Of a stretch of DNA of 64,000 nt, positions 10,701 to 29,515 are shown one piece after another. Source of the DNA: Escherichia coli (lineage in GTDB: Bacteria; Pseudomonadota; Gammaproteobacteria; Enterobacterales; Enterobacteriaceae); NCBI RefSeq assembly GCF_965641715.1, contig NZ_OZ282453.1. One strand, 5' to 3'. The position numbers and the translations under genes are program-made. The first letter of the stretch is position 1; the number at the start of each line of letters is the position of its first letter. Below the pieces are notes generated by a model, which saw nothing but the letters and a program-made list of their open reading frames with translations, made no database searches and had not been told where the DNA came from.

Positions 10701-11543
10701 CGCAAAAGGTTGTCGTGCTGGGGATAGCGAGGGAATAGCAGCGAGTACTTTATCTACACAGCGTTGCCACTCATCTTCTGAAGCGAGTGAAAGATGATGA
10801 CATAGACGTTGATGCCAACTCGGTAGCGATTCTGCTTCGTGATTAGGTGGAATGATGGTGGTTACTGCGCCTTTTACTGGTTTATATTTGAGTTGAAGAG
10901 CGAGAAGGGCGATTTCAACGGCACTTTCCAGACCACAGCGAATGACTAAGTCATCGACCAGTTCATCTTGAGAGTAAGAGTTCCAAAAGCCCCAGAGCAA
11001 TGCTGCATCAGATTGCGCACTCCCTGTCGGTTGATTACCCTTAACTCGCATTTGTAACTCAGCAAAAGCCTGCTGCCAGTTTTCTGGATAAGAGCGGTAA
11101 TTGTTGTCGGGATCATATGCCCTGGTGTTATTCGCGATGCGCTTCCATATTTGGCCATCTTTGTACAGATAATTGATCTCTCTGGGGCGAGAGCGATGAG
11201 GAAAAGCAAATCGATTAATATCGTCAGTGACCGGAATGACTGCATCATCAGCCAGCCAGGGGCGTTGGTTTTTACTCTCAGGGGAAGTTTCAACTTCAGG
11301 AGTGGCTTTGGTAATGGGGGGGATATGCACGTTTGCTGAAGCATTTTCCACATAGCCTTTTTTCGTTTTCTCCGCGATAAGCTTCAGTTTCGCTTTTTCC
11401 GCTGCTGCAACATCAGCAAAATTTTTTACCTGGCTTTGCCCTTGGGTACCAACTTTTCCCCAGCTGATATGCAACTCGTTTCCCTGCTGCTCCACCGCCC
11501 AGAATTTATGTGATTTTTCGTCCTGATAGATAAAGTGTCTCAT
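7746..11543 (-). CDS. molR: MolR-like large protein (1265 aa), intact; WGR-like N-terminus plus DUF4132-like region
   Basis: Track ORF 1265 aa next to metG; N-terminus MRHFIYQDEKSHKFWAVEQQGNELHISWGKVG; in K-12 this gene is, as I recall, a pseudogene. Confidence 0.6.
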   Translation of the reverse strand: MRHFIYQDEKSHKFWAVEQQGNELHISWGKVGTQGQSQVKNFADVAAAEKAKLKLIAEKTKKGYVENASANVHIPPITKATPEVETSPESKNQRPWLADDAVIPVTDDINRFAFPHRSRPREINYLYKDGQIWKRIANNTRAYDPDNNYRSYPENWQQAFAELQMRVKGNQPTGSAQSDAALLWGFWNSYSQDELVDDLVIRCGLESAVEIALLALQLKYKPVKGAVTTIIPPNHEAESLPSWHQRLCHHLSLASEDEWQRCVDKVLAAIPSLSPARQPFAALLLPERPDIANAMALRYADQNVPAMTWLRLVVTDDAALTTAEKYDFPPLYHDFRAYLAMLLANNGVRGVSRILLEFTEEHSDNPTYLFERISETEDLVKWLWKTNHPDAIQILILGVNGKKKHLEYLSKACQKHPAAAIAAYATLLAIHENNEWRKALVKLITATPELVCEVIPWVNAKAAGILSECRPLPVAEECEYATVDMLPELLVAPPWVINKKKNVIPVFDLPVLPIPAVTDITPGITELISHTDISRFSEIAQYQASQQTLFTDLPPIKKERWETSFIPLTPEQQILWRLGFKEWRRTGEEQYEKKIMPQSAVDALLRFDFPALKAEFAQYHNKGSRHWQLYALCFLPTQHAISFLNQIINEEQFSGEREILAIFGDAAIPAFMKCLQRKPQQLWIFTLFLGVSELALPMAQRLQKKMSAEDARKWLANFPRHAAAGLLPVALGKKGKDRDCARQALRLLVNLNQRETIEEIAQGYNQPDVLAALATLFDSEPLEEYPAKIAPLPGFYQFTLWRRPRLKSNNLPLSDDAMRHLGTMLSFPRDITAYAGLDIIREIFTRESLAEFGWDLYTAWTEAGAPAKENWAFTSLGILGNDDTARKLTPLIRAWPGESQHKRAVSGLDVLADIGSDVALMLLNGIARKIKFKALQEHAREKINIVAENRGLTMAEMEDRLAPDLGLDSSGSLILDFGPRKFTVGFDETLKPVVCDANGKVLKDLPKPNQSDDKTLATDAVNLFKQLKKDVRAIASQHITRLEQAMCQRRRWTAEQFRLFLVEHPLVRHLTRRLLWGVYNDENALITCFRVAEDSTYSDAQDELFTLPAGNIGIPHVLEIPPESAAAFRQIYVDYELLPPFQQLERGSYHLADNERNVHELSRWNGRLCQAGRIVGLERRGWQRLEESGSVYAMRKSTPYGALELETEPFSLIYGETGYSDLLPVESVKITAPYDRYGKQSSPTFSMLDDITASELINDIESLFD

Positions 11544-22644: not shown

Positions 22645-22778
22645 CAACCAAACGACTCGGGGTGCCCTTCTACGTGAAGGCTGAGAAATACCCGTATCAC
22701 CTGATCTGGATAATGCCAGCGTAGGGAAGTCACGGACCACCAGGTCATTGCTTCTTCACGTTATGGCAGGAGCAAACT
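22645..22778 (+). promoter_or_regulatory. TPP (THI-box) riboswitch leader of thiMD
   Basis: Sequence ggggtgcccttctacgtgaaggctgagaaatacccgtatcacctgatctggataatgccagcgtagggaa matches the classic thiM aptamer; lies immediately upstream of the thiM start. Confidence 0.8.
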
Positions 22779-23567
22779 ATGCAAGTCGACCTGCTGAGTT
22801 CCGCGCAATCTGCGCACGCGTTACACCTTTTTCACCAACATTCCCCTCTTGTGCATTGCATGACCAATGATGTGGTGCAAACCTTTACTGCCAATACCTT
22901 GCTGGCGCTCGGTGCATCGCCAGCGATGGTTATCGAAACCGAAGAGGCCAGTCAGTTTGCGGCTATCGCCAGTGCCTTGTTGATTAACGTTGGCACGCTG
23001 ACGCAGCCACGCGCACAGGCGATGCGTGCCGCCGTTGAGCAAGCAAAAAGCTCTCAAACCCCCTGGACGCTTGATCCAGTAGCGGTTGGTGCGCTCGATT
23101 ATCGTCGCCATTTTTGTCATGAACTTTTATCTTTTAAACCGGCAGCGATACGTGGTAATGCTTCGGAAATCATGGCATTAGCTGGCGTTGCTACTGGCGG
23201 ACGGGGAGTGGATACCACTGACGCGGCAGCTAATGCGATACCCGCTGCACAAACACTGGCACGGGAAACTGGCGCAATCTTCGTGGTCACTGGCGAGGTG
23301 GATTATGTTACCGATGGTCGTCGCACCGTTGGCATTCACGGCGGCGATCCGTTAATGGCCAAAGTGGTAGGAACTGGCTGTGCATTATCGGCAGTTGTCG
23401 CTGCCTGCTGTGCGTTACCAGGCGATATGCTGGAAAATGTCGCATCTGCCTGTCACTGGATGAAACAAGCCGGAGAACGCGCAGTCGCCAGAAGCGAGGG
23501 GCCAGGCAGTTTTGTTCCACATTTCCTTGATGCGCTCTGGCAATTGACGCAGGAGGTGCAGGCATGA
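22779..23567 (+). CDS. thiM: Hydroxyethylthiazole kinase
   Basis: 262 aa; ThiM-like sequence; overlaps the thiD start by 4 nt. Confidence 0.9.
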
Positions 23568-24364
23568 AACGAATTAACGCTCTGACGATTGCCGGTACTG
23601 ATCCGAGTGGTGGTGCGGGGATTCAGGCCGATCTTAAAACCTTCTCGGCACTTGGCGCTTATGGTTGCTCAGTTATTACTGCTCTGGTGGCGCAAAACAC
23701 CCGTGGCGTACAGTCGGTGTATCGCATTGAGCCTGATTTTGTCGCTGCCCAGCTCGATTCGGTGTTCAGCGATGTGCGAATCGACACCACTAAAATCGGT
23801 ATGTTGGCGGAAACCGATATTGTTGAAGCGGTGGCAGAACGGTTGCAACGTTATCAGATCCAAAACGTGGTACTCGACACCGTTATGCTGGCAAAAAGCG
23901 GCGACCCACTGCTTTCACCTTCGGCGGTTGCTACGCTGCGCAGTCGATTATTGCCACAGGTTTCATTAATAACGCCAAACTTGCCCGAAGCTGCTGCCTT
24001 GCTCGACGCGCCACACGCGCGCACCGAACAGGAAATGCTGGAACAAGGGCGATCGCTGTTGGCGATGGGCTGTGGCGCAGTGCTAATGAAAGGTGGTCAT
24101 CTGGATGATGAGCAAAGCCCGGACTGGCTGTTTACCCGCGAGGGTGAACAACGGTTTACCGCACCGCGCATTATGACCAAAAACACCCACGGCACTGGTT
24201 GTACACTCTCTGCGGCGTTGGCTGCACTACGCCCGCGCCATACAAACTGGGCTGACACCGTACAGGAGGCAAAAAGCTGGCTTTCATCGGCGTTAGCACA
24301 GGCCGACACGCTGGAAGTTGGTCACGGTATTGGTCCGGTTCACCACTTCCACGCCTGGTGGTGA
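23564..24364 (+). CDS. thiD: Hydroxymethylpyrimidine/phosphomethylpyrimidine kinase
   Basis: 266 aa; N-terminus [31 protein letters not shown] typical of ThiD/PdxK kinases. Confidence 0.9.
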
Positions 24365-24419: not shown

Positions 24420-25247
24420 ATGAAACCAATGCAGCTAAGCATTACCAGTCGAAAAAAACTCACCGCTCTATTATGCGCTCTTGGGCTAATTTCCATCGTT
24501 GCAATTTATCCGCGTCAGACGGTGAATTTTTTCTATTCGACAGCAGTTCAGATTACAGACTACATCCACTTCTACGGTTATCGCCCGGTTAAATCTTTCG
24601 CTATTCGCATTCCTGCCAGTTACACCATTCACGGAATAGATGTTTCGCGCTGGCAGGAGCGGATCGACTGGCAGCGGGTGGCAAAAATGCGCGACAACGG
24701 TATCCGCTTACAGTTTGCTTTTATTAAGGCGACGGAAGGCGAAAAGCTGGTGGACCCGTATTTTTCGCGTAACTGGCAACTAAGCCGCGAAAATGGCCTG
24801 CTGCGCGGGGCGTATCATTATTTCTCCCCGTCGGTAGCAGCGCCGGTTCAGGCGCGATTATTTCTGCAAACGGTGGATTTCTCACAAGGCGATTTCCCTG
24901 CCGTGCTGGACGTAGAAGAACGGGGAAAATTATCGGCAAAAGAATTACGCAAGCGGGTAAGTCAGTGGCTAAAAATGGTCGAAAAAAGTACGGGAAAAAA
25001 GCCGGTTATTTACTCAGGAGCCGTTTTTTATCACACCAATCTGGCGGGCTATTTCAATGAATATCCGTGGTGGGTGGCTCACTACTATCAACGTCGTCCG
25101 GACAATGACGGCATGGCCTGGCGCTTCTGGCAGCATTCCGACCGTGGACAGGTAGATGGCATCAATGGTCCGGTGGATTTTAATGTATTTAATGGCACGG
25201 TGGAGGAGTTGCAGGCATTCGTTGATGGGATTAAAGAAACGCCTTAA
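24420..25247 (+). CDS. yegX: Glycoside hydrolase family 25 (lysozyme-like) protein YegX
   Basis: 275-aa track ORF; N-terminal membrane anchor; GH25-like; start may be a few codons downstream. Confidence 0.7.
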   Translation: MKPMQLSITSRKKLTALLCALGLISIVAIYPRQTVNFFYSTAVQITDYIHFYGYRPVKSFAIRIPASYTIHGIDVSRWQERIDWQRVAKMRDNGIRLQFAFIKATEGEKLVDPYFSRNWQLSRENGLLRGAYHYFSPSVAAPVQARLFLQTVDFSQGDFPAVLDVEERGKLSAKELRKRVSQWLKMVEKSTGKKPVIYSGAVFYHTNLAGYFNEYPWWVAHYYQRRPDNDGMAWRFWQHSDRGQVDGINGPVDFNVFNGTVEELQAFVDGIKETP

Positions 25248-25298
25248 ATAAGAAGCAGTGATATACTCCCACCAGACTCCCTGGCAGGAAAAAGACAA

Positions 25299-26045
25299 AT
25301 GGAACAAGCGCATACCCAGCTGATTGCCCAACTGAACGAGCGTATTTTAGCGGCGGATAACACGCCGCTTTATATTAAGTTTGCCGAAACGGTAAAAAAT
25401 GCCGTGCGCAGCGGGGTGCTGGAGCATGGCAATATTTTGCCCGGTGAGCGTGATTTAAGTCAGTTAACCGGCGTTTCGCGCATTACGGTGCGCAAGGCGA
25501 TGCAGGCGCTGGAAGAAGAGGGCGTGGTGACGCGTTCGCGTGGTTACGGCACGCAGATCAACAACATCTTCGAATACTCGTTGAAAGAAGCGCGAGGTTT
25601 TTCTCAGCAGGTGGTATTGCGCGGGAAAAAGCCCGATACGCTATGGGTTAACAAGCGTGTCGTGAAATGTCCCGAAGAAGTCGCGCAGCAGCTGGCGGTC
25701 GAAGCGGGAAGTGATGTCTTTTTGCTTAAGCGTATTCGCTATGTCGATGAAGAAGCGGTATCGATTGAGGAATCGTGGGTTCCGGCGCATTTAATTCATG
25801 ATGTTGATGCCATCGGAATTTCTCTTTATGACTATTTCCGCAGCCAGCACATTTACCCACAACGTACACGTTCCCGCGTTAGCGCCCGGATGCCAGATGC
25901 CGAGTTTCAGTCACATATTCAGTTAGATAGCAAAATACCGGTGCTGGTGATCAAGCAAGTGGCGCTTGACCAACAGCAACGGCCTATTGAATACAGCATT
26001 AGCCACTGTCGCAGCGATCTATACGTTTTTGTTTGCGAGGAGTAG
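25299..26045 (+). CDS. yegW: GntR/HutC-family transcriptional regulator YegW
   Basis: 248 aa; N-terminal winged HTH (LPGERDLSQLTGVSRITVRKAMQAL) plus UTRA-like C-terminus. Confidence 0.8.
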   Translation: MEQAHTQLIAQLNERILAADNTPLYIKFAETVKNAVRSGVLEHGNILPGERDLSQLTGVSRITVRKAMQALEEEGVVTRSRGYGTQINNIFEYSLKEARGFSQQVVLRGKKPDTLWVNKRVVKCPEEVAQQLAVEAGSDVFLLKRIRYVDEEAVSIEESWVPAHLIHDVDAIGISLYDYFRSQHIYPQRTRSRVSARMPDAEFQSHIQLDSKIPVLVIKQVALDQQQRPIEYSISHCRSDLYVFVCEE

Positions 26046-26984
26046 TTCCTCGCGCGTTGGCGCACAATCACCGCCCCGATGCCCGACAACCCACGACGCC
26101 ACTGCATTGCCCAGTAATACGGCATCCGCCAGTGGCAGACCAGAGGCCAGCCCGGCAAGTACGCCACCGGCATGACTGTCGCCCGCCCCAATGGTGTCGA
26201 CAACTTGCGTTGGAAATGCCGGAATGCAGCCAGAAGCGTCGTTGCTGAAATACCATGCGCCTTCTTTATCGAGACGAACGATCAACGGCGCGGCAAATTT
26301 CTCCTGCCATTGTTTGCCAAGTGTTGTTATCTCTGCGGATAAAGCAAAACGTTCGGCGGCAATCTCAGCCTCTTGACGATTGAGTGACACTAAAGGTCGA
26401 CAGGCCATGATCCGCGCCAGTAATGCATCCGGGATATCGCCAATACGTGGGCCAAAATCGATAAACGGCGTCACGTCTTGCAGCTTTTCCAGCCATTCCA
26501 CTAATAATTCGCCGCAGGGCGAGGCCATTTGATAACCGGAAAAATAGAGCAGGCTGCCAGGCGCAACGGTTAATCGCGCCAGACACTGGCGATTCCACTG
26601 ATTTTCCACACCGCTGAATGACATAAAAGTGCGTTCGCCATCCGGCTCAACCAGCGCCAGACACCAGCCGTTATCACCTTCGGCGTTATCGATCAGGCTG
26701 ATTAAGCCCTCTTTTGCCATCCGGTTGCGAATAATCTCCGCCCACACGCCCTGACCGAGCGGCAAGGCGTTACCCGCTTCGATGCCGAGGCGTTTTAACG
26801 CCACGGCAATATTCAGGGCGCAGCCGCCAACGTTAACGCTCTGCTGTTTCAGTTCGATATCGCACCCACGCCAGGGGAGGGCATAAGCGTCGGCGATCAC
26901 GTCAATGACCGCCGCGCCGACGACCATCACCGGCTGACGCGTGGTTAATTCAGGCAGCAGCGTGTGTAATCGAGCGCCGCTCAT
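26019..26984 (-). CDS. yegV: PfkB-family sugar/nucleoside kinase YegV
   Basis: 321 aa; ribokinase-like motifs (DTIGAGDSHAGG). Confidence 0.8.
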   Translation of the reverse strand: MSGARLHTLLPELTTRQPVMVVGAAVIDVIADAYALPWRGCDIELKQQSVNVGGCALNIAVALKRLGIEAGNALPLGQGVWAEIIRNRMAKEGLISLIDNAEGDNGWCLALVEPDGERTFMSFSGVENQWNRQCLARLTVAPGSLLYFSGYQMASPCGELLVEWLEKLQDVTPFIDFGPRIGDIPDALLARIMACRPLVSLNRQEAEIAAERFALSAEITTLGKQWQEKFAAPLIVRLDKEGAWYFSNDASGCIPAFPTQVVDTIGAGDSHAGGVLAGLASGLPLADAVLLGNAVASWVVGHRGGDCAPTREELLLANKNV

Positions 26985-27985
26985 ACCACCTCCCGTTGTT
27001 GGCGATACTTCGCCAGCGCTGTGGCATAGCGGTTGAAATCAAGCTGATTTACCGCATCCAGTTCCGCCTTTAACGCAGGATCGATAGCGTTAACGCCATG
27101 CAACGCGCCGCAAATCGCCGTCGCCATAGCGCCGATGGTGTCTGTGTCGCCGCCAAGGTTAGCGCACAGGACGGCGCAACGGTTCGGGTCGGTTTGTGCC
27201 AGTTCAACCAGCGCAATGGCGCACGGAACGGACTCAATAGTGCTGGTACCTGCGCCAACGACCTGGTAAAGCTGTTCGCTGGCGGATTCAGTGCCGTCGG
27301 CATTGCGCACAATTTTCAGCGCAATCTCCAGACGTGCTGCCAGTGAGGCGCTGAAGGTAGTGATGCGTTTTTGCTGTGCATGTCGCGCAATTGAAGGCAG
27401 TGAATCAACAATCGCTGACCAGCTTTCTCCGTCAATGGCACGAGAAATCGCCCATGCGATGACTACCGCGCCTGCAACCGCCAGATCGGATTTATGGGTC
27501 GGGCTGGACGCCAGCGCCACATCATCAATAAAGGAATCAACATCGTGCGCCGGAAGCAAACAACCTAATGGCGAGACGCGCATCGCTGCGCCGTTGGTCA
27601 CGCCGTTGTTTTCCAGTTCAGCAACGGGTTTACCGTCGCGAATGGCGTTGAGAGCAATCTTCGAGGTCGGACCTAGTACGTTTTTGTTAAAGGCGTCGAA
27701 ACGCAGCGCCCAGTCGAGAATATTACGCCCAATCAGATTCGGGTCGATCTTGCCTTCACGTTCCAGTAACGCATCCGCCAGACACAGCGCCATCGAGGTA
27801 TCGTCGGTGAATTCGGCGCGGTTAAAATAACAGGCCGCGTTATTCTCCTTTGGTCCAGGCAGAAAACGGTCAATCCAGCCAAAGTGTGCTTTAACGCGGC
27901 TGCGTGGCCAAAGCTCGGAGGGCATCCCCATCGCATCCCCTAACGCCTGCCCATAAAGAGCACCGAGAATACGTTCTGTTTTCAT
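26981..27985 (-). CDS. yegU: ADP-ribosylglycohydrolase-family protein YegU
   Basis: 334 aa; N-terminus RILGALYGQALGDAMGMP typical of ARH/DraG family; 4-nt overlap with yegV. Confidence 0.8.
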   Translation of the reverse strand: MKTERILGALYGQALGDAMGMPSELWPRSRVKAHFGWIDRFLPGPKENNAACYFNRAEFTDDTSMALCLADALLEREGKIDPNLIGRNILDWALRFDAFNKNVLGPTSKIALNAIRDGKPVAELENNGVTNGAAMRVSPLGCLLPAHDVDSFIDDVALASSPTHKSDLAVAGAVVIAWAISRAIDGESWSAIVDSLPSIARHAQQKRITTFSASLAARLEIALKIVRNADGTESASEQLYQVVGAGTSTIESVPCAIALVELAQTDPNRCAVLCANLGGDTDTIGAMATAICGALHGVNAIDPALKAELDAVNQLDFNRYATALAKYRQQREVV

Positions 27986-29259
27986 TTAACTTCCCCTTGT
28001 GTCAACGCAATATCGCGATCATCGACCTTGATAGCCGTAATTTCGTTGTCGGATTCGCGGAAAAAAATCATGAACAGCACGGCGATAATGGCAATCATCA
28101 CCGCGCCAAAAGTCCACATCCCGGACCAGTTGAAAGTCAGTCCGTTTACCGGTTCCTGATAAGCGAACATCTTTTCCATCATCACACCGCCAAGACGATA
28201 GCCGAGCAAACTGCCGAAGCCCTGGCAGCAGAGCGTGATCAGCCCCTGCGCGGCGGTACGCATATGCACGGGGGCTTTTTTATCGACATAGATGTAAGCG
28301 GTAACGTAGTAAAAATCGTAACTTACGCCGTGAAGCAAAATACCGAGGAACAGTAACGCGTAGGTGAAATATTCATCCGCACTACCGTAAATAAAGAAGC
28401 CATAGCGGATCGCAGCGGTGATTAGACCAAGCAATAATACCTTTTTGATACCAAAGCGTTTAGTGAAAAACGGCAATGCCAGCATAAAGAAGATTTCAGA
28501 GAACTGGCCGAGCGTCATCCAGCCGGTGGCGTTTTTCATGCCAACTTCGGTCAGATAACCGTTGGCAAAGATGTAATAGAACGCCAGTGGCATCGCAAAC
28601 AGGAATGAACAGAAGAAAAAGACGAGGAAGTTTTTATCGCGCAGCAGGATCAGCGCATCCAGGCCGAGCATGACTTTAATGTCCATTTTGCCGGTGCTTT
28701 TTGGTGGCGTGTCGGGCAGGAAAAACGCAAACACACCGAGCAGAGCAGAACTTCCGGCGGTAATCAGCAGCGGGATGTTAGTCGGTGAGATATCGGCATA
28801 CCCCAGCATTTGCGGCAAGAAACCACATGCCAGACCGGAGGCAATCCAGCCGATAGTGCCCATCACACGAATGCGCGGGAAATCACGCTCAACATCCGGC
28901 ACGTTGGCAAAAGCGATGCTGTTAGTCAGCGCAATGGTCGGCATATAGGTTAGCGAGTAGGCCAGCAGTAACGGGAAGAACCCGGCAAAAGTGGTCTGTT
29001 GCGCGGCGAAATACATCAGCACCGCACCAGCGAACATCAATACCGCCAGCACTTTCTGCGCCGAGAAAAAGCGGTCAGTGATGGAGCCAACCAGAATTGG
29101 CGACAGGATCGCCGCAATGGCTGTGCAGGCATACGACCAGCCAATTTCTCCGGCACTAAAACCGCTTTTACTTAACCACAACCACAATGGCACAAACCAC
29201 GCGCCCCAGATAAACCATTCAACAAACATCATGAACGACAGCTTTGCTGTTGTTTTCAT
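27982..29259 (-). CDS. yegT: MFS nucleoside:H+ symporter-family transporter YegT
   Basis: 425 aa, polytopic membrane protein; 4-nt overlap with yegU. Confidence 0.8.
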   Translation of the reverse strand: MKTTAKLSFMMFVEWFIWGAWFVPLWLWLSKSGFSAGEIGWSYACTAIAAILSPILVGSITDRFFSAQKVLAVLMFAGAVLMYFAAQQTTFAGFFPLLLAYSLTYMPTIALTNSIAFANVPDVERDFPRIRVMGTIGWIASGLACGFLPQMLGYADISPTNIPLLITAGSSALLGVFAFFLPDTPPKSTGKMDIKVMLGLDALILLRDKNFLVFFFCSFLFAMPLAFYYIFANGYLTEVGMKNATGWMTLGQFSEIFFMLALPFFTKRFGIKKVLLLGLITAAIRYGFFIYGSADEYFTYALLFLGILLHGVSYDFYYVTAYIYVDKKAPVHMRTAAQGLITLCCQGFGSLLGYRLGGVMMEKMFAYQEPVNGLTFNWSGMWTFGAVMIAIIAVLFMIFFRESDNEITAIKVDDRDIALTQGEVK

Positions 29260-29515
29260 CTTTTAATTCCTTCATGACAGGTAATGTAAGGTACGCGATG
29301 ACAATACCACTTAATAATACCTTTTAAATACCTTTGCGGTGAAAACTTGACCGCGCTAACATTTTTTCTGATGAATCGAGCCAACAGAAAACGCTGAAAA
29401 AACATCCAAAAGATGGAAAAACTCGCCCGTAACGACCAGGATTATGATTGCCCGCAAAAGGCGGGCCAGGACAATCCATAGCCGATATCCAATCGGAATT
29501 TACGGGAGCATAGTA

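Follow-up and report, generated by a model that had tools for sequence, protein, structure and literature searches.

Among the described systems closest to the yegTUV genes of Escherichia coli is the psuK(yeiC)-psuG(yeiN)-psuT(yeiM) operon of the same bacterium, in which a dedicated nucleoside permease is combined with a PfkB kinase and a glycosidase. In the Psu pathway, the PfkB kinase phosphorylates the 5'-OH of the nucleoside, and the glycosidase then yields ribose-5-phosphate and the base. The same logic is proposed here for YegT, YegV and YegU, with the difference that the kinase-first order has been demonstrated for Psu and is reached by inference for yegTUV. The parts differ as well: the Psu glycosidase belongs to the PsuG family whereas YegU has the ADP-ribosylglycohydrolase (ARH) fold, the permease is of the CNT type rather than the NHS type of YegT, and on the pseudouridine kinase profile (PsuK, NF007355), whose cut-off is 540 bits, YegV obtains 19.

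A second parallel is found in Salmonella, where STM4065-4066-4067 encode a permease, a PfkB kinase and a putative ADP-ribosylglycohydrolase, and where the kinase acts on a riboside, namely aminoimidazole riboside. A GntR-family regulator, STM4068, is said to have been placed next to these three genes by Dougherty and Downs in 2003. The locus is nevertheless separate from Salmonella's own yegTUV. The structure 1TYY, which we take to be that of STM4066, was not among the PDB matches of YegV or of two YegV-type kinases, which argues that STM4066 and YegV are not close relatives. Salvage of nicotinamide riboside by PnuC and NadR, in which import is followed by a trapping kinase, provides a third comparison, and 14 clostridial ARH-PfkB loci are served by a PnuC-family transporter. 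The kinase in these loci is of the PfkB type rather than the P-loop kinase of NadR, the next enzyme is a hydrolase rather than an adenylyltransferase, and the E. coli module uses YegT, not PnuC.

The individual proteins also have well-studied relatives. ARH3, ARH1, DraG and Tri1 hydrolyze at C1'' of a ribose that bears a 5''-phosphate ester, their substrates being ADP-ribosylated proteins, poly(ADP-ribose) and O-acetyl-ADP-ribose, with alpha-configured ligands named in PDB titles 7ARW and 7AQM. YegU resembles them in its all-alpha ARH fold, binuclear metal site and catalytic Glu, but it lies in a transporter-kinase operon, has relatives that are fused to a kinase and does not reach the equivalog cut-offs. 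To our knowledge, every characterized ARH-family enzyme acts on ADP-ribosyl conjugates, and we know of none that acts on a simple 5-phosphoribosyl compound. YegT shares family and fold with the nucleoside:H+ symporters NupG and XapB, including the protonation site in a GXXXD motif, yet it is only about 27% identical to NupG and does not retain the residues with which NupG contacts uridine. The crystal structure of YegT has been published, and neither binding of U, A, C or G by ITC nor transport of uridine, cytidine, xanthosine or gemcitabine in uptake assays was detected; on this evidence from the literature the canonical nucleosides tested are excluded as the substrate, in contrast to NupG and XapB.

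The locus analyzed here lies at 24420-29259 of a 64,000-nucleotide stretch of E. coli DNA (the window), where all five ORFs (yegX, yegW, yegV, yegU and yegT) are intact (Table 1). It is 100% identical to the locus of E. coli A30 and is found, carrying these gene names, in 5424 of 5426 complete E. coli genomes; the operon is thus the already-known yegTUV, and its repressor is YegW (GgaR). The families named in a preliminary description of this DNA (GH25, GntR/HutC, PfkB, ADP-ribosylglycohydrolase and a nucleoside-type MFS transporter) were all borne out by Pfam. That description had also called the cluster uncharacterized, which does not hold for YegW, published as GgaR, or for the solved structure of YegT, but still holds for the substrate of YegT, YegU and YegV: papers from 2024-2025 continue to describe the functions of yegTUV as unknown.

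Table 1. Features of the yegX-yegW-yegVUT locus (positions in the window)
Feature	Position	Strand	Basis or remark
yegX: membrane-anchored GH25 muramidase-like protein	24420/24429..25247	+	Pfam GH25
yegW (ggaR): GntR/HutC-type repressor with UTRA effector domain	25299..26045	+	Pfam GntR + UTRA
yegV: PfkB (ribokinase-superfamily) kinase, putative riboside 5'-kinase	26019..26984	-	Pfam PfkB
yegV/yegW convergent (tail-to-tail) coding overlap, 27 nt	26019..26045	.	ORF ends
yegU/yegV ATGA overlap	26981..26984	-	GGGAGG upstream; kept in Salmonella
yegU: ARH-fold (ADP-ribosylglycohydrolase) hydrolase, putative glycosidase	26981..27985	-	Pfam ADP_ribosyl_GH
yegT/yegU ATGA overlap	27982..27985	-	GGGGAA 8 nt upstream; kept in Salmonella
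yegT: NHS-family MFS permease, first gene of the operon	27982..29259	-	425-aa ORF; Pfam Nuc_H_symport
Probable secondary GgaR site within yegT, GGTATCAAAAAGGTATTATTGCTTGGT	28426..28452	-	Composite pattern; ORF nt ~808-834
Conserved GTACCTTAC box downstream of the GGTAT boxes, with inverted TACC half-site	29286..29294	-	Upstream-region alignment
Probable primary GgaR operator: three direct (A/T)GGTATT boxes, spacing 11 + 13 nt	29303..29335	-	Repeats; inside 190-bp probe

The translational-coupling anatomy that had been proposed for the operon is real, with 4-nt ATGA stop/start overlaps at both the yegT/yegU and the yegU/yegV junction, each of which, as read from the sequence, follows an SD-like motif. 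At the corresponding junctions of other genomes, an in-frame start giving a -4 overlap was found in 19 of 28 cases between transporter and ARH genes and in 29 of 48 between ARH and PfkB genes, counts obtained by a nearest-start method that is biased towards -4. A feature absent from the preliminary description is the tail-to-tail overlap of yegV and yegW, which is an identical 27 nt in 22 of 25 Enterobacterales loci; the pair is a listed excludon candidate.

YegT falls clearly within the NHS family, with 611 bits (1e-183) against PF03825 (Nuc_H_symport), above the cut-off, and 653 bits against NCBIfam TIGR00889 (cut-off 446), and it is proposed as the putative importer of the operon's substrate. 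YegU matches PF03747 over residues 8-302 with 224 bits (4e-66; cut-off 26.2). Its E24, T60-D61-D62 and D280/D282/T283 align with E41, T76-D77-D78 and D314/D316/T317 of ARH3; in 23 homologues D61 and D282 never vary, and the conservation of D62, D280 and T283 is 90% or more. The AF2 model (pLDDT 97) has the all-alpha ARH fold, and Foldseek gave MJ1187, a protein of unknown function, as the best PDB match (TM 0.82/0.90), with ARH3 and DraG at TM 0.73-0.79. YegU thus keeps the complete ARH metal and catalytic set as well as the fold, and is predicted to be catalytically competent. YegV matches PF00294 with 190.6 bits (5e-56; cut-off 25.8), and the residues conserved over 69 family members include D28, N58, N202, E205 and G-A-G-D269; within the catalytic GAGD and NxxE motifs, D269 occurs in 69/69, N202 in 65/69 and E205 in 67/69. 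No equivalog cut-off is reached by YegV, and its closest profile and PDB matches are ribokinases.

YegW combines an N-terminal GntR winged helix (PF00392, 59 bits) with a C-terminal UTRA domain (PF07702, 125 bits) and reaches no specific equivalog cut-off. Published work describes it, under the name GgaR, as a repressor with yegTUV as its single target; its deletion gives roughly 30-fold derepression, and it binds a 190-bp upstream probe and, more weakly, a probe of yegT nt 571-869. The pattern GGTATN6GGTATTATTN3TGGT occurs exactly twice in the 64 kb, at the promoter and inside yegT, where none would be expected by chance. The promoter copy overlaps a -10-like TATTAT (promoter-like site at 29343-29314), and the GGTAT boxes are the best-conserved stretch of the yegT upstream regions of 14 Enterobacterales and Vibrio genomes, being palindromic in Vibrio; the second copy falls inside the published probe with weaker binding. 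The two copies therefore match the two published binding regions, and the GGTAT boxes are, as judged from sequence, the probable GgaR operator. Half-sites of the TGGTAT type are typical of HutC-subfamily operators.

The remaining gene, yegX, encodes a clear GH25 protein (184 bits, 4e-54, cut-off 27; best PDB match 2WAG, 2e-32), which RefSeq starts at the second ATG (24429) to give 272 aa. Residues 10-28 form a hydrophobic N-terminal segment, and further along are the catalytic-type motifs GIDVS (D71) and LDVE (D161, E163), whose D71 and D161/E163 we assume to be catalytic by analogy with solved GH25 enzymes. A tblastn search of 95 loci detected yegX only in L001 and L014, both from E. coli; in Salmonella, Citrobacter, Enterobacter and others the gene is absent, and yegW there abuts thiD. 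The inclusion of yegX in the module by the preliminary description is thus not sustained, and yegX is an unrelated, E. coli-specific neighbor.

A survey of the module took in 83 loci of Proteobacteria, Firmicutes, Actinobacteria, Chloroflexi and other groups, with ORF calls and clustering that are crude in genomes other than E. coli. A YegV-like PfkB gene adjoins a YegU-like ARH gene in 68 of these, and the pair is the conserved core of the module. Among the closest relatives of YegU are fusions in both arrangements, PfkB-ARH (P0187, P0204, P0214) and ARH-PfkB (P0199, P0227, P0248, P0270, P0217); the operon context together with these fusions argues for a small-molecule substrate of YegU. The transporter beside the pair varies across the 83 loci between families that are not related to one another, with NHS in 30, NCS1 (PF02133) in 21, PnuC in 14 and an ECF type in L092, and the PnuC of the module passes NCBIfam TIGR01528 (150 bits, cut-off 42). 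NHS, NCS1 and PnuC proteins transport nucleosides, nucleobases or vitamin ribosides. A GntR/UTRA regulator homologous to YegW lies next to the pair in 54 of 83 loci; Edwardsiella and Serratia marcescens have the ARH and GntR genes with no adjacent kinase or transporter, which counts against the pathway proposed below. Some modules are flanked by genes for purine-nucleoside phosphorylases (DeoD-type and others), DeoB-like proteins or DeoC, and the clusters that recur in many of the loci comprise the ARH, PfkB, GntR and transporter families along with the enterobacterial synteny genes fbaB, thiD and thiM. The earlier idea of a nucleoside-like uptake and catabolic unit gains support from this comparison.

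We consider it reasonably likely that yegTUV and yegW encode a pathway which, under the control of a repressor, takes up a non-canonical riboside from the environment and cleaves it. In this pathway YegT, a proton symporter, would import the riboside, and YegV would phosphorylate its ribose 5'-OH, both trapping the compound in the cell and creating the 5-phosphoribosyl handle that ARH-fold enzymes recognize. YegU, with its binuclear metal site, would then hydrolyze the glycosidic bond to yield ribose-5-phosphate and the free aglycone. YegW (GgaR), bound to the GGTAT boxes over the -10 region and to the second site in yegT, would keep the operon off, the inducer most likely being the phosphorylated intermediate or a close analogue, and the ATGA junctions would couple the translation of YegT, YegU and YegV. 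Three elements of this pathway are what we infer: that the kinase acts first, that the substrate is a riboside, and what serves as the inducer. An association of the module with the gut is counted as support: yegT truncations accumulate in S. Typhi, and an STM4067 (ARH gene) mutant is attenuated in the pig intestine.

The preliminary description implied the opposite order, deglycosylation followed by phosphorylation, and the ribokinase matches of YegV make it possible that YegU converts the imported riboside to ribose and aglycone, like the nucleoside hydrolases RihA/B/C, with YegV serving as a dedicated ribokinase. Consistent with such a role, D28 and N58 of YegV are kept and align with the sugar-binding positions of ribokinase. 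However, YegV scores far below the RbsK cut-offs (82.7 versus 299.65 for TIGR02152, 59.8 versus 341 for NF008353), the GGKG Lys that contacts ribose in ribokinase is replaced by Cys55 in 60 of the 69 family members, RbsK is already present in E. coli, and all known ARH substrates bear a phosphate ester at ribose 5''. Furthermore, uptake through PnuC, a facilitator, requires that the riboside be phosphorylated inside the cell, and the association of PnuC with the module therefore favors a trapping kinase that acts on the imported riboside itself. The ARH/PfkB fusions fit consecutive steps in either order and therefore do not discriminate. The order implied earlier is probably reversed, and hydrolysis first is rather unlikely. 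A more distant reading treats YegU as an eraser of ADP-ribosylation on protein or another macromolecule, like DraG, ARH1, ARH3 or Tri1, with its neighbors incidental. The ARH fold and complete catalytic set would suit such an enzyme, but YegU stays well under the equivalog cut-offs of DraG (80.5 versus 337 bits, TIGR02662) and Tri1 (69.8 versus 490 bits, NF041672) and shares translational coupling with a permease and a kinase, its relatives include fusions to the kinase, and no gene for an ADP-ribosyltransferase came to notice beside the 83 modules, where individual annotation covered the clusters shared by many loci. In the alignment with ARH3, a 3-residue segment ahead of the GNGGAMR motif is also missing, and N and V stand in place of F143 and Y149, which we take to be adenine-stacking. 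We regard macromolecular de-ADP-ribosylation as very improbable, although an ADP-ribosylated substrate as such, as had been suggested, is neither supported nor contradicted.

The published proposal is that yegTUV uses or makes ADP-glucose, which GgaR senses and thereby sets glycogen. ADP-glucose is the sole experimentally reported (claimed) effector of GgaR, freeing it from the fbaB/yegT probe in gel shifts where glucose and ADP do not, and glycogen level is the sole phenotype: ggaR deletion roughly doubles early glycogen, and a low-glycogen screen picked up a yegV deletion. Glucose and ADP were the only controls, however, which leaves room for the ribose-5'-phosphate moiety to act as an analogue, and glucose induces only about 3-fold in vivo versus the 30-fold or so seen upon deletion. 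None of the 83 loci has a glg gene beside the module, the transporters that replace one another there (PnuC, NCS1 and ECF S-component types) are not known as carriers of nucleotide sugars, and ADP-glucose has no O- or N-linked leaving group at ribosyl-1'' of the kind that ARH enzymes cleave. A direct link to ADP-glucose thus seems doubtful in the extreme, if a shade less remote than an eraser role; the riboside pathway, for its part, accounts for the effector and the phenotype only as analogue or indirect effects. The chance is likewise very slim that the module serves thiamine salvage by importing aminoimidazole riboside or another such precursor. This suggestion draws on thiM-thiD immediately upstream in Enterobacteriaceae, on TenA near the module in two Lactobacillaceae loci and on STM4065-4067, where the same permease/PfkB/ARH architecture includes a kinase, STM4066, that phosphorylates this riboside. 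Yet only one family places thiMD next to the module, an arrangement to be counted once, and thiMD is served by a TPP riboswitch of its own; in 11 other loci no such riboswitch precedes the module, the one found there belonging to tenA. Cleavage of the phosphorylated riboside (AIR) would moreover destroy the precursor, and STM4066 appears distant from YegV by the 1TYY comparison above.

The pathway for a non-canonical riboside thus remains the favored reading of yegTUV, an orphan operon already known, whose function can now be tested more directly.

The five genes of the yegX-yegW-yegVUT region are intact open reading frames (Table), and their products all fall into the expected Pfam families: GH25 for YegX, GntR plus UTRA for YegW, PfkB for YegV, ADP_ribosyl_GH for YegU and Nuc_H_symport for YegT. 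The preliminary description of these genes was correct on both counts. The same stretch, with exactly these gene names, was found in 5424 of 5426 complete E. coli genomes. Nucleotides 24420-29259 are 100% identical to E. coli strain A30, an isolate from baboon faeces, and match almost every other complete E. coli genome at 95-99% identity (the next-best listed match being 98.9%), which suggests that the window derives from a somewhat divergent E. coli lineage. The region is flanked by rcnR and a TPP riboswitch with thiM-thiD on one side, and by fbaB and the gat operon on the other. Both junctions within the yegTUV operon consist of ATGA, with GGGGAA and GGGAGG a few bases upstream. This is the classic anatomy of translational coupling, as had been noticed from the start, and the three reading frames are likely to be coupled.

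Features of the yegX-yegT region and of its thiM-thiD flank, in window coordinates
Feature	Position	Strand	Remark
TPP riboswitch	22648-22744		directly upstream of thiM-thiD and yegX
thiM-thiD	22779-24364		thiM and thiD overlap by 4 nt
yegX	24420 or 24429 to 25247	+	intact ORF
yegW	25299-26045	+	intact ORF
yegV	26019-26984	-	intact ORF
yegU	26981-27985	-	intact ORF
yegT	27982-29259	-	intact ORF
yegV/yegW coding-end overlap	26019-26045		27 nt, tail to tail; leaves no space for a terminator
Three direct (A/T)GGTATT boxes	29303-29335	-	upstream of yegT; overlap a -10-like TATTAT
Composite GGTAT motif, promoter copy	29306-29332
Composite GGTAT motif, yegT-internal copy	28426-28452		ORF nt ~808-834, inside the published secondary-binding probe

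To call the locus uncharacterized was an overstatement, since repression by GgaR, a structure of YegT and transport tests of YegT have all been published. Saito et al. (2024; PMC10819704) renamed YegW as GgaR and described it, from ChIP-chip, gel shift and Northern blot evidence, as a single-target repressor of yegTUV, which is transcribed as a 3.3-kb mRNA. GgaR bound strongly to a site in the 190 bp preceding yegT, and less strongly to one at nucleotides 571-869 of the yegT reading frame. Deletion of ggaR raised yegTUV mRNA about 30-fold and approximately doubled early glycogen, whereas induction by glucose was only about 3-fold. GgaR was freed from DNA in vitro by ADP-glucose, and not by glucose or ADP. 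On the transporter side, Xiao et al. (2025; PMC11979927) solved the structure of YegT, found that the uridine-contacting residues of NupG are not conserved in it, and detected no significant binding of uridine, adenosine, cytidine or guanosine by ITC; in an independent transport study (PMC11241209), YegT did not take up uridine, cytidine, xanthosine or gemcitabine. Canonical nucleosides are thus experimentally disfavoured as YegT substrates. Among open-access papers and preprints, a coverage that could miss a report in a subscription journal, the GgaR, YegT-structure and transport papers were the only ones to bear on an established function of YegU or YegV. A 2025 preprint still enters YegV as an uncharacterised sugar kinase, and the original statement that the substrate is not established therefore holds.

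The module had also been drawn to include yegX, and this part has to be given up. Salmonella has no yegX, its yegW abutting thiD, and a tblastn search found yegX in only two of 95 loci, both from E. coli; judged by this distribution, yegX is outside the module. The gene product (24429-25247) resembles GH25 muramidases, is anchored in the membrane at its N-terminus and has its catalytic-type motifs intact; the insertion of yegX between yegW and thiD is specific to E. coli. Between two E. coli lineages, YegX shows 92% protein identity, compared to 97% for YegU. No paper characterising yegX was found among open-access papers and preprints, where subscription-journal reports could escape notice. 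The TPP riboswitch and thiM-thiD directly upstream of yegX are an ordinary thiamine salvage unit.

Neither YegU nor YegV reached a specific curated model. YegV scored 83 bits against the ribokinase model (cut-off 300) and 19 against pseudouridine kinase (cut-off 540), and YegU scored 80 bits against DraG (cut-off 337) and 70 against Tri1 (cut-off 490). By sequence, the closest solved structure to YegU is MJ1187, a protein whose function is not known (1e-29), followed by ARH3 and DraG, and the AF2 model of YegU (pLDDT 97) superposes on all three; the closest structures to YegV are assorted ribokinases (~1e-16). The ARH metal and catalytic set of YegU is complete (E24, T60-D61-D62 and D280/D282/T283, aligning with E41, T76-D77-D78 and D314/D316/T317 of ARH3), and in YegV the GAGD and NxxE motifs of PfkB catalysis are retained along with the sugar-pocket Asp/Asn. 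Both proteins therefore look enzymatically active, and each falls into a subfamily with no assigned function. The position of the ribokinase GGKG lysine is occupied by cysteine in 60 of 69 YegV-family members.

The best 120 matches of a first YegU homology search were all at least 81% identical, and informative distances were reached by an exhaustive search of cluster representatives (235 at E<=1e-30). Among the best matches are proteins of 600-760 amino acids which, by Pfam, are fusions of the PfkB and ARH domains in both orders, arguing by Rosetta-stone logic that YegU and YegV act on consecutive steps. The genomic survey comprised 83 loci, 78 with a YegU-family alignment and five from exact-protein look-ups, and its statements about other genomes depend on simple ORF calling and clustering. 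The ARH gene is adjoined by a YegV-like PfkB gene at 68 of the 83 loci and by a GntR/UTRA regulator at 54. The neighbouring transporter varies: an NHS permease (the family of YegT) at 30 loci, in Enterobacterales and Vibrio; an NCS1 permease (PF02133) at 21, in Aeromonas, Serratia oryzae, Bacilli, Lactobacillaceae, Dialister, Parasutterella, Chloroflexi and Streptomyces; and a PnuC-family transporter of about 230 amino acids at 14, in clostridial, lachnospiraceal and related Firmicutes. With 150 bits, the PnuC protein clears the cut-off of the NCBIfam PnuC model (42); the swapped NCS1 transporters reached no specific NCBIfam cut-off that would name a substrate, and neither did an isochorismatase-family (nicotinamidase-like) protein encoded at one locus (L095), where 4-nt overlaps couple its gene and that of an NCS1 permease to an ARH-PfkB fusion. 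On a metagenomic contig, a PfkB-ARH fusion lies behind a GntR/UTRA gene and an ECF transporter and is followed by DeoB-like, NCS1 and DeoC genes, and purine-nucleoside phosphorylases lie beside two modules. Such non-orthologous displacement of the transporter, with the enzyme pair unchanged, argues for a single type of substrate, a ribosyl-bearing small molecule taken up by the cell. Nucleosides, nucleobases and vitamin ribosides are the cargo of the displacing families.

Several loci depart from this plan. Four from Edwardsiella and Serratia (L038, L040, L041, L050) have a YegU-like ARH gene and a GntR gene beside purB/hflD-like genes, with no adjacent PfkB kinase or transporter, and may represent a reduced or re-wired module. 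At two others (L077, 2445-5012, and L088), a protein of about 855 amino acids with ARH-like motifs by eye (e.g. GWDTDCNVG) has as neighbours ABC transporter genes of the sugar type and a PfkB>ARH pair whose gene order is reversed. In Marinimicrobia and Ignavibacteria (L082, L085), the ARH gene is flanked by a GntR gene and a protein whose N-terminal domain is AIR-synthase-related by a weak Pfam match, and genes that by eye encode putative TonB-dependent-type outer-membrane receptors replace the inner-membrane permease and kinase. At one further locus (L010), a guanidine-I riboswitch (10918-11023) precedes a pair of genes of the small multidrug-resistance family; this riboswitch seems to have no connection with the adjacent ARH-PfkB-NCS1-DeoD module.

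In our leading model, which we hold to be more likely than not, a riboside would be imported, YegV would add a 5'-phosphate, and YegU would then cut the glycosidic bond to yield ribose-5-phosphate and the aglycone. A bolder reading, to which we give a lower probability, is that YegU and YegV represent a widespread, unrecognised class of riboside salvage, in which a PfkB kinase devoted to the pathway is followed by an ARH-fold glycosidase for small ribotides. The opposite order, with cleavage before phosphorylation, seems unlikely on several grounds. To our knowledge, in all characterised ARH substrates the ribose that is cleaved at C1'' is esterified with phosphate at 5''. The ligands among fold matches of the YegU model (ADP-ribose, ADP, alpha-NAD+ and analogues) agree with this, and no solved ARH-fold structure in that search was described with a simple ribotide bound. 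PnuC-type facilitators, as in the PnuC/NadR system, need a kinase in the cytoplasm that phosphorylates the riboside once it is inside, and YegV lacks the ribokinase lysine and falls below the ribokinase cut-off. PsuK and PsuG provide a precedent for the same kinase-then-glycosidase order.

Three other readings rank below this model. A role in ADP-glucose or glycogen metabolism has direct but thin experimental support; it leaves the transporter spectrum unexplained, finds no glg neighbour and does not account for ARH chemistry. That YegU removes ADP-ribose from proteins is at odds with its operon, with the fusions and with its scores below the equivalog cut-offs. A role with thiamine precursors draws on the adjacency of thiMD, a TenA neighbour and the Salmonella STM4065-4067 operon, which is identical in architecture to yegTUV and whose kinase phosphorylates aminoimidazole riboside. 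However, the thiMD synteny with yegW is confined to a single lineage, the Enterobacteriaceae, no TPP riboswitch controlling the module was found in 11 other loci, and 1TYY, which we take to be the structure of STM4066, is absent from the PDB matches of YegV-type kinases. The thiamine link was rejected on these grounds.

The upstream regions of yegT offer a candidate operator. In an alignment of 14 Enterobacterales and Vibrio genomes, conservation is highest in the GGTATT boxes and in a GTACC box, and in Vibrio the arrangement becomes a TGGTATT...AATACCA palindrome. The 64-kb window contains exactly two copies of the composite motif GGTATN6GGTATTATTN3TGGT, where chance alone would give none; because both copies coincide with published GgaR probes, we propose them as GgaR operators. 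When the region was scanned for terminators and promoters, the numbers of matches were no higher than chance, and the promoter-like site overlapping the GGTAT boxes is used only as context. A CRP SELEX site has been reported in the fbaB/yegT spacer and may serve either side. The yegV/yegW pair has been named among RNA-seq excludon candidates, and 22 of 25 Enterobacterales loci have the same 27-nt overlap; transcribed towards each other, the repressor and its only target could come under additional antisense control. The compounds compared with ADP-glucose for release of GgaR were glucose and ADP only. ADP-glucose itself contains a ribose-5'-phosphate ester, and the true inducer is probably the phosphorylated intermediate of the proposed pathway.

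As to the substrate, we would roughly rank pyridine ribosides ahead of modified nucleosides from RNA turnover, and these ahead of alpha-configured ribosides. Pyridine ribosides come first because of the PnuC and isochorismatase-family contexts, which hint at a route in which nicotinamide or nicotinic-acid riboside could be converted to the mononucleotide and then to base plus ribose-5-phosphate. An NMN nucleosidase activity has long been reported in E. coli, and we know of no gene assigned to it; this route, if true, could supply one. The substrate could alternatively be an alpha-riboside, such as the alpha-ribazole-type lower-ligand nucleosides freed from cobamides in the gut, a candidate because known ARH enzymes are specific for the alpha anomer.

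The locus is catalogued, its regulator is published, and nucleoside-type operons of transporter, kinase and glycosidase are familiar. The novelty would lie in an ARH-fold enzyme acting as the glycosidase, in a cross-phylum clade without an assigned substrate. Among the orphan operons of E. coli, yegTUV is one of the better conserved, and the two enzymes at its core are met again in gut Firmicutes, in Proteobacteria and in further phyla. Thanks to the fusions, the displaced transporters and the operator motif, this long-standing orphan can be tested directly, and the comparative data narrow the search to a small panel, the ribosides of NHS, NCS1, PnuC and ECF transporters. If the model is true, the published link of GgaR to ADP-glucose and glycogen would need reinterpretation, a nutrient or cofactor-salvage route of many gut bacteria would be identified, and ARH-fold enzymes, so far known for erasing ADP-ribose marks, would acquire a function in metabolism, the glycosidic cleavage of ribotides.
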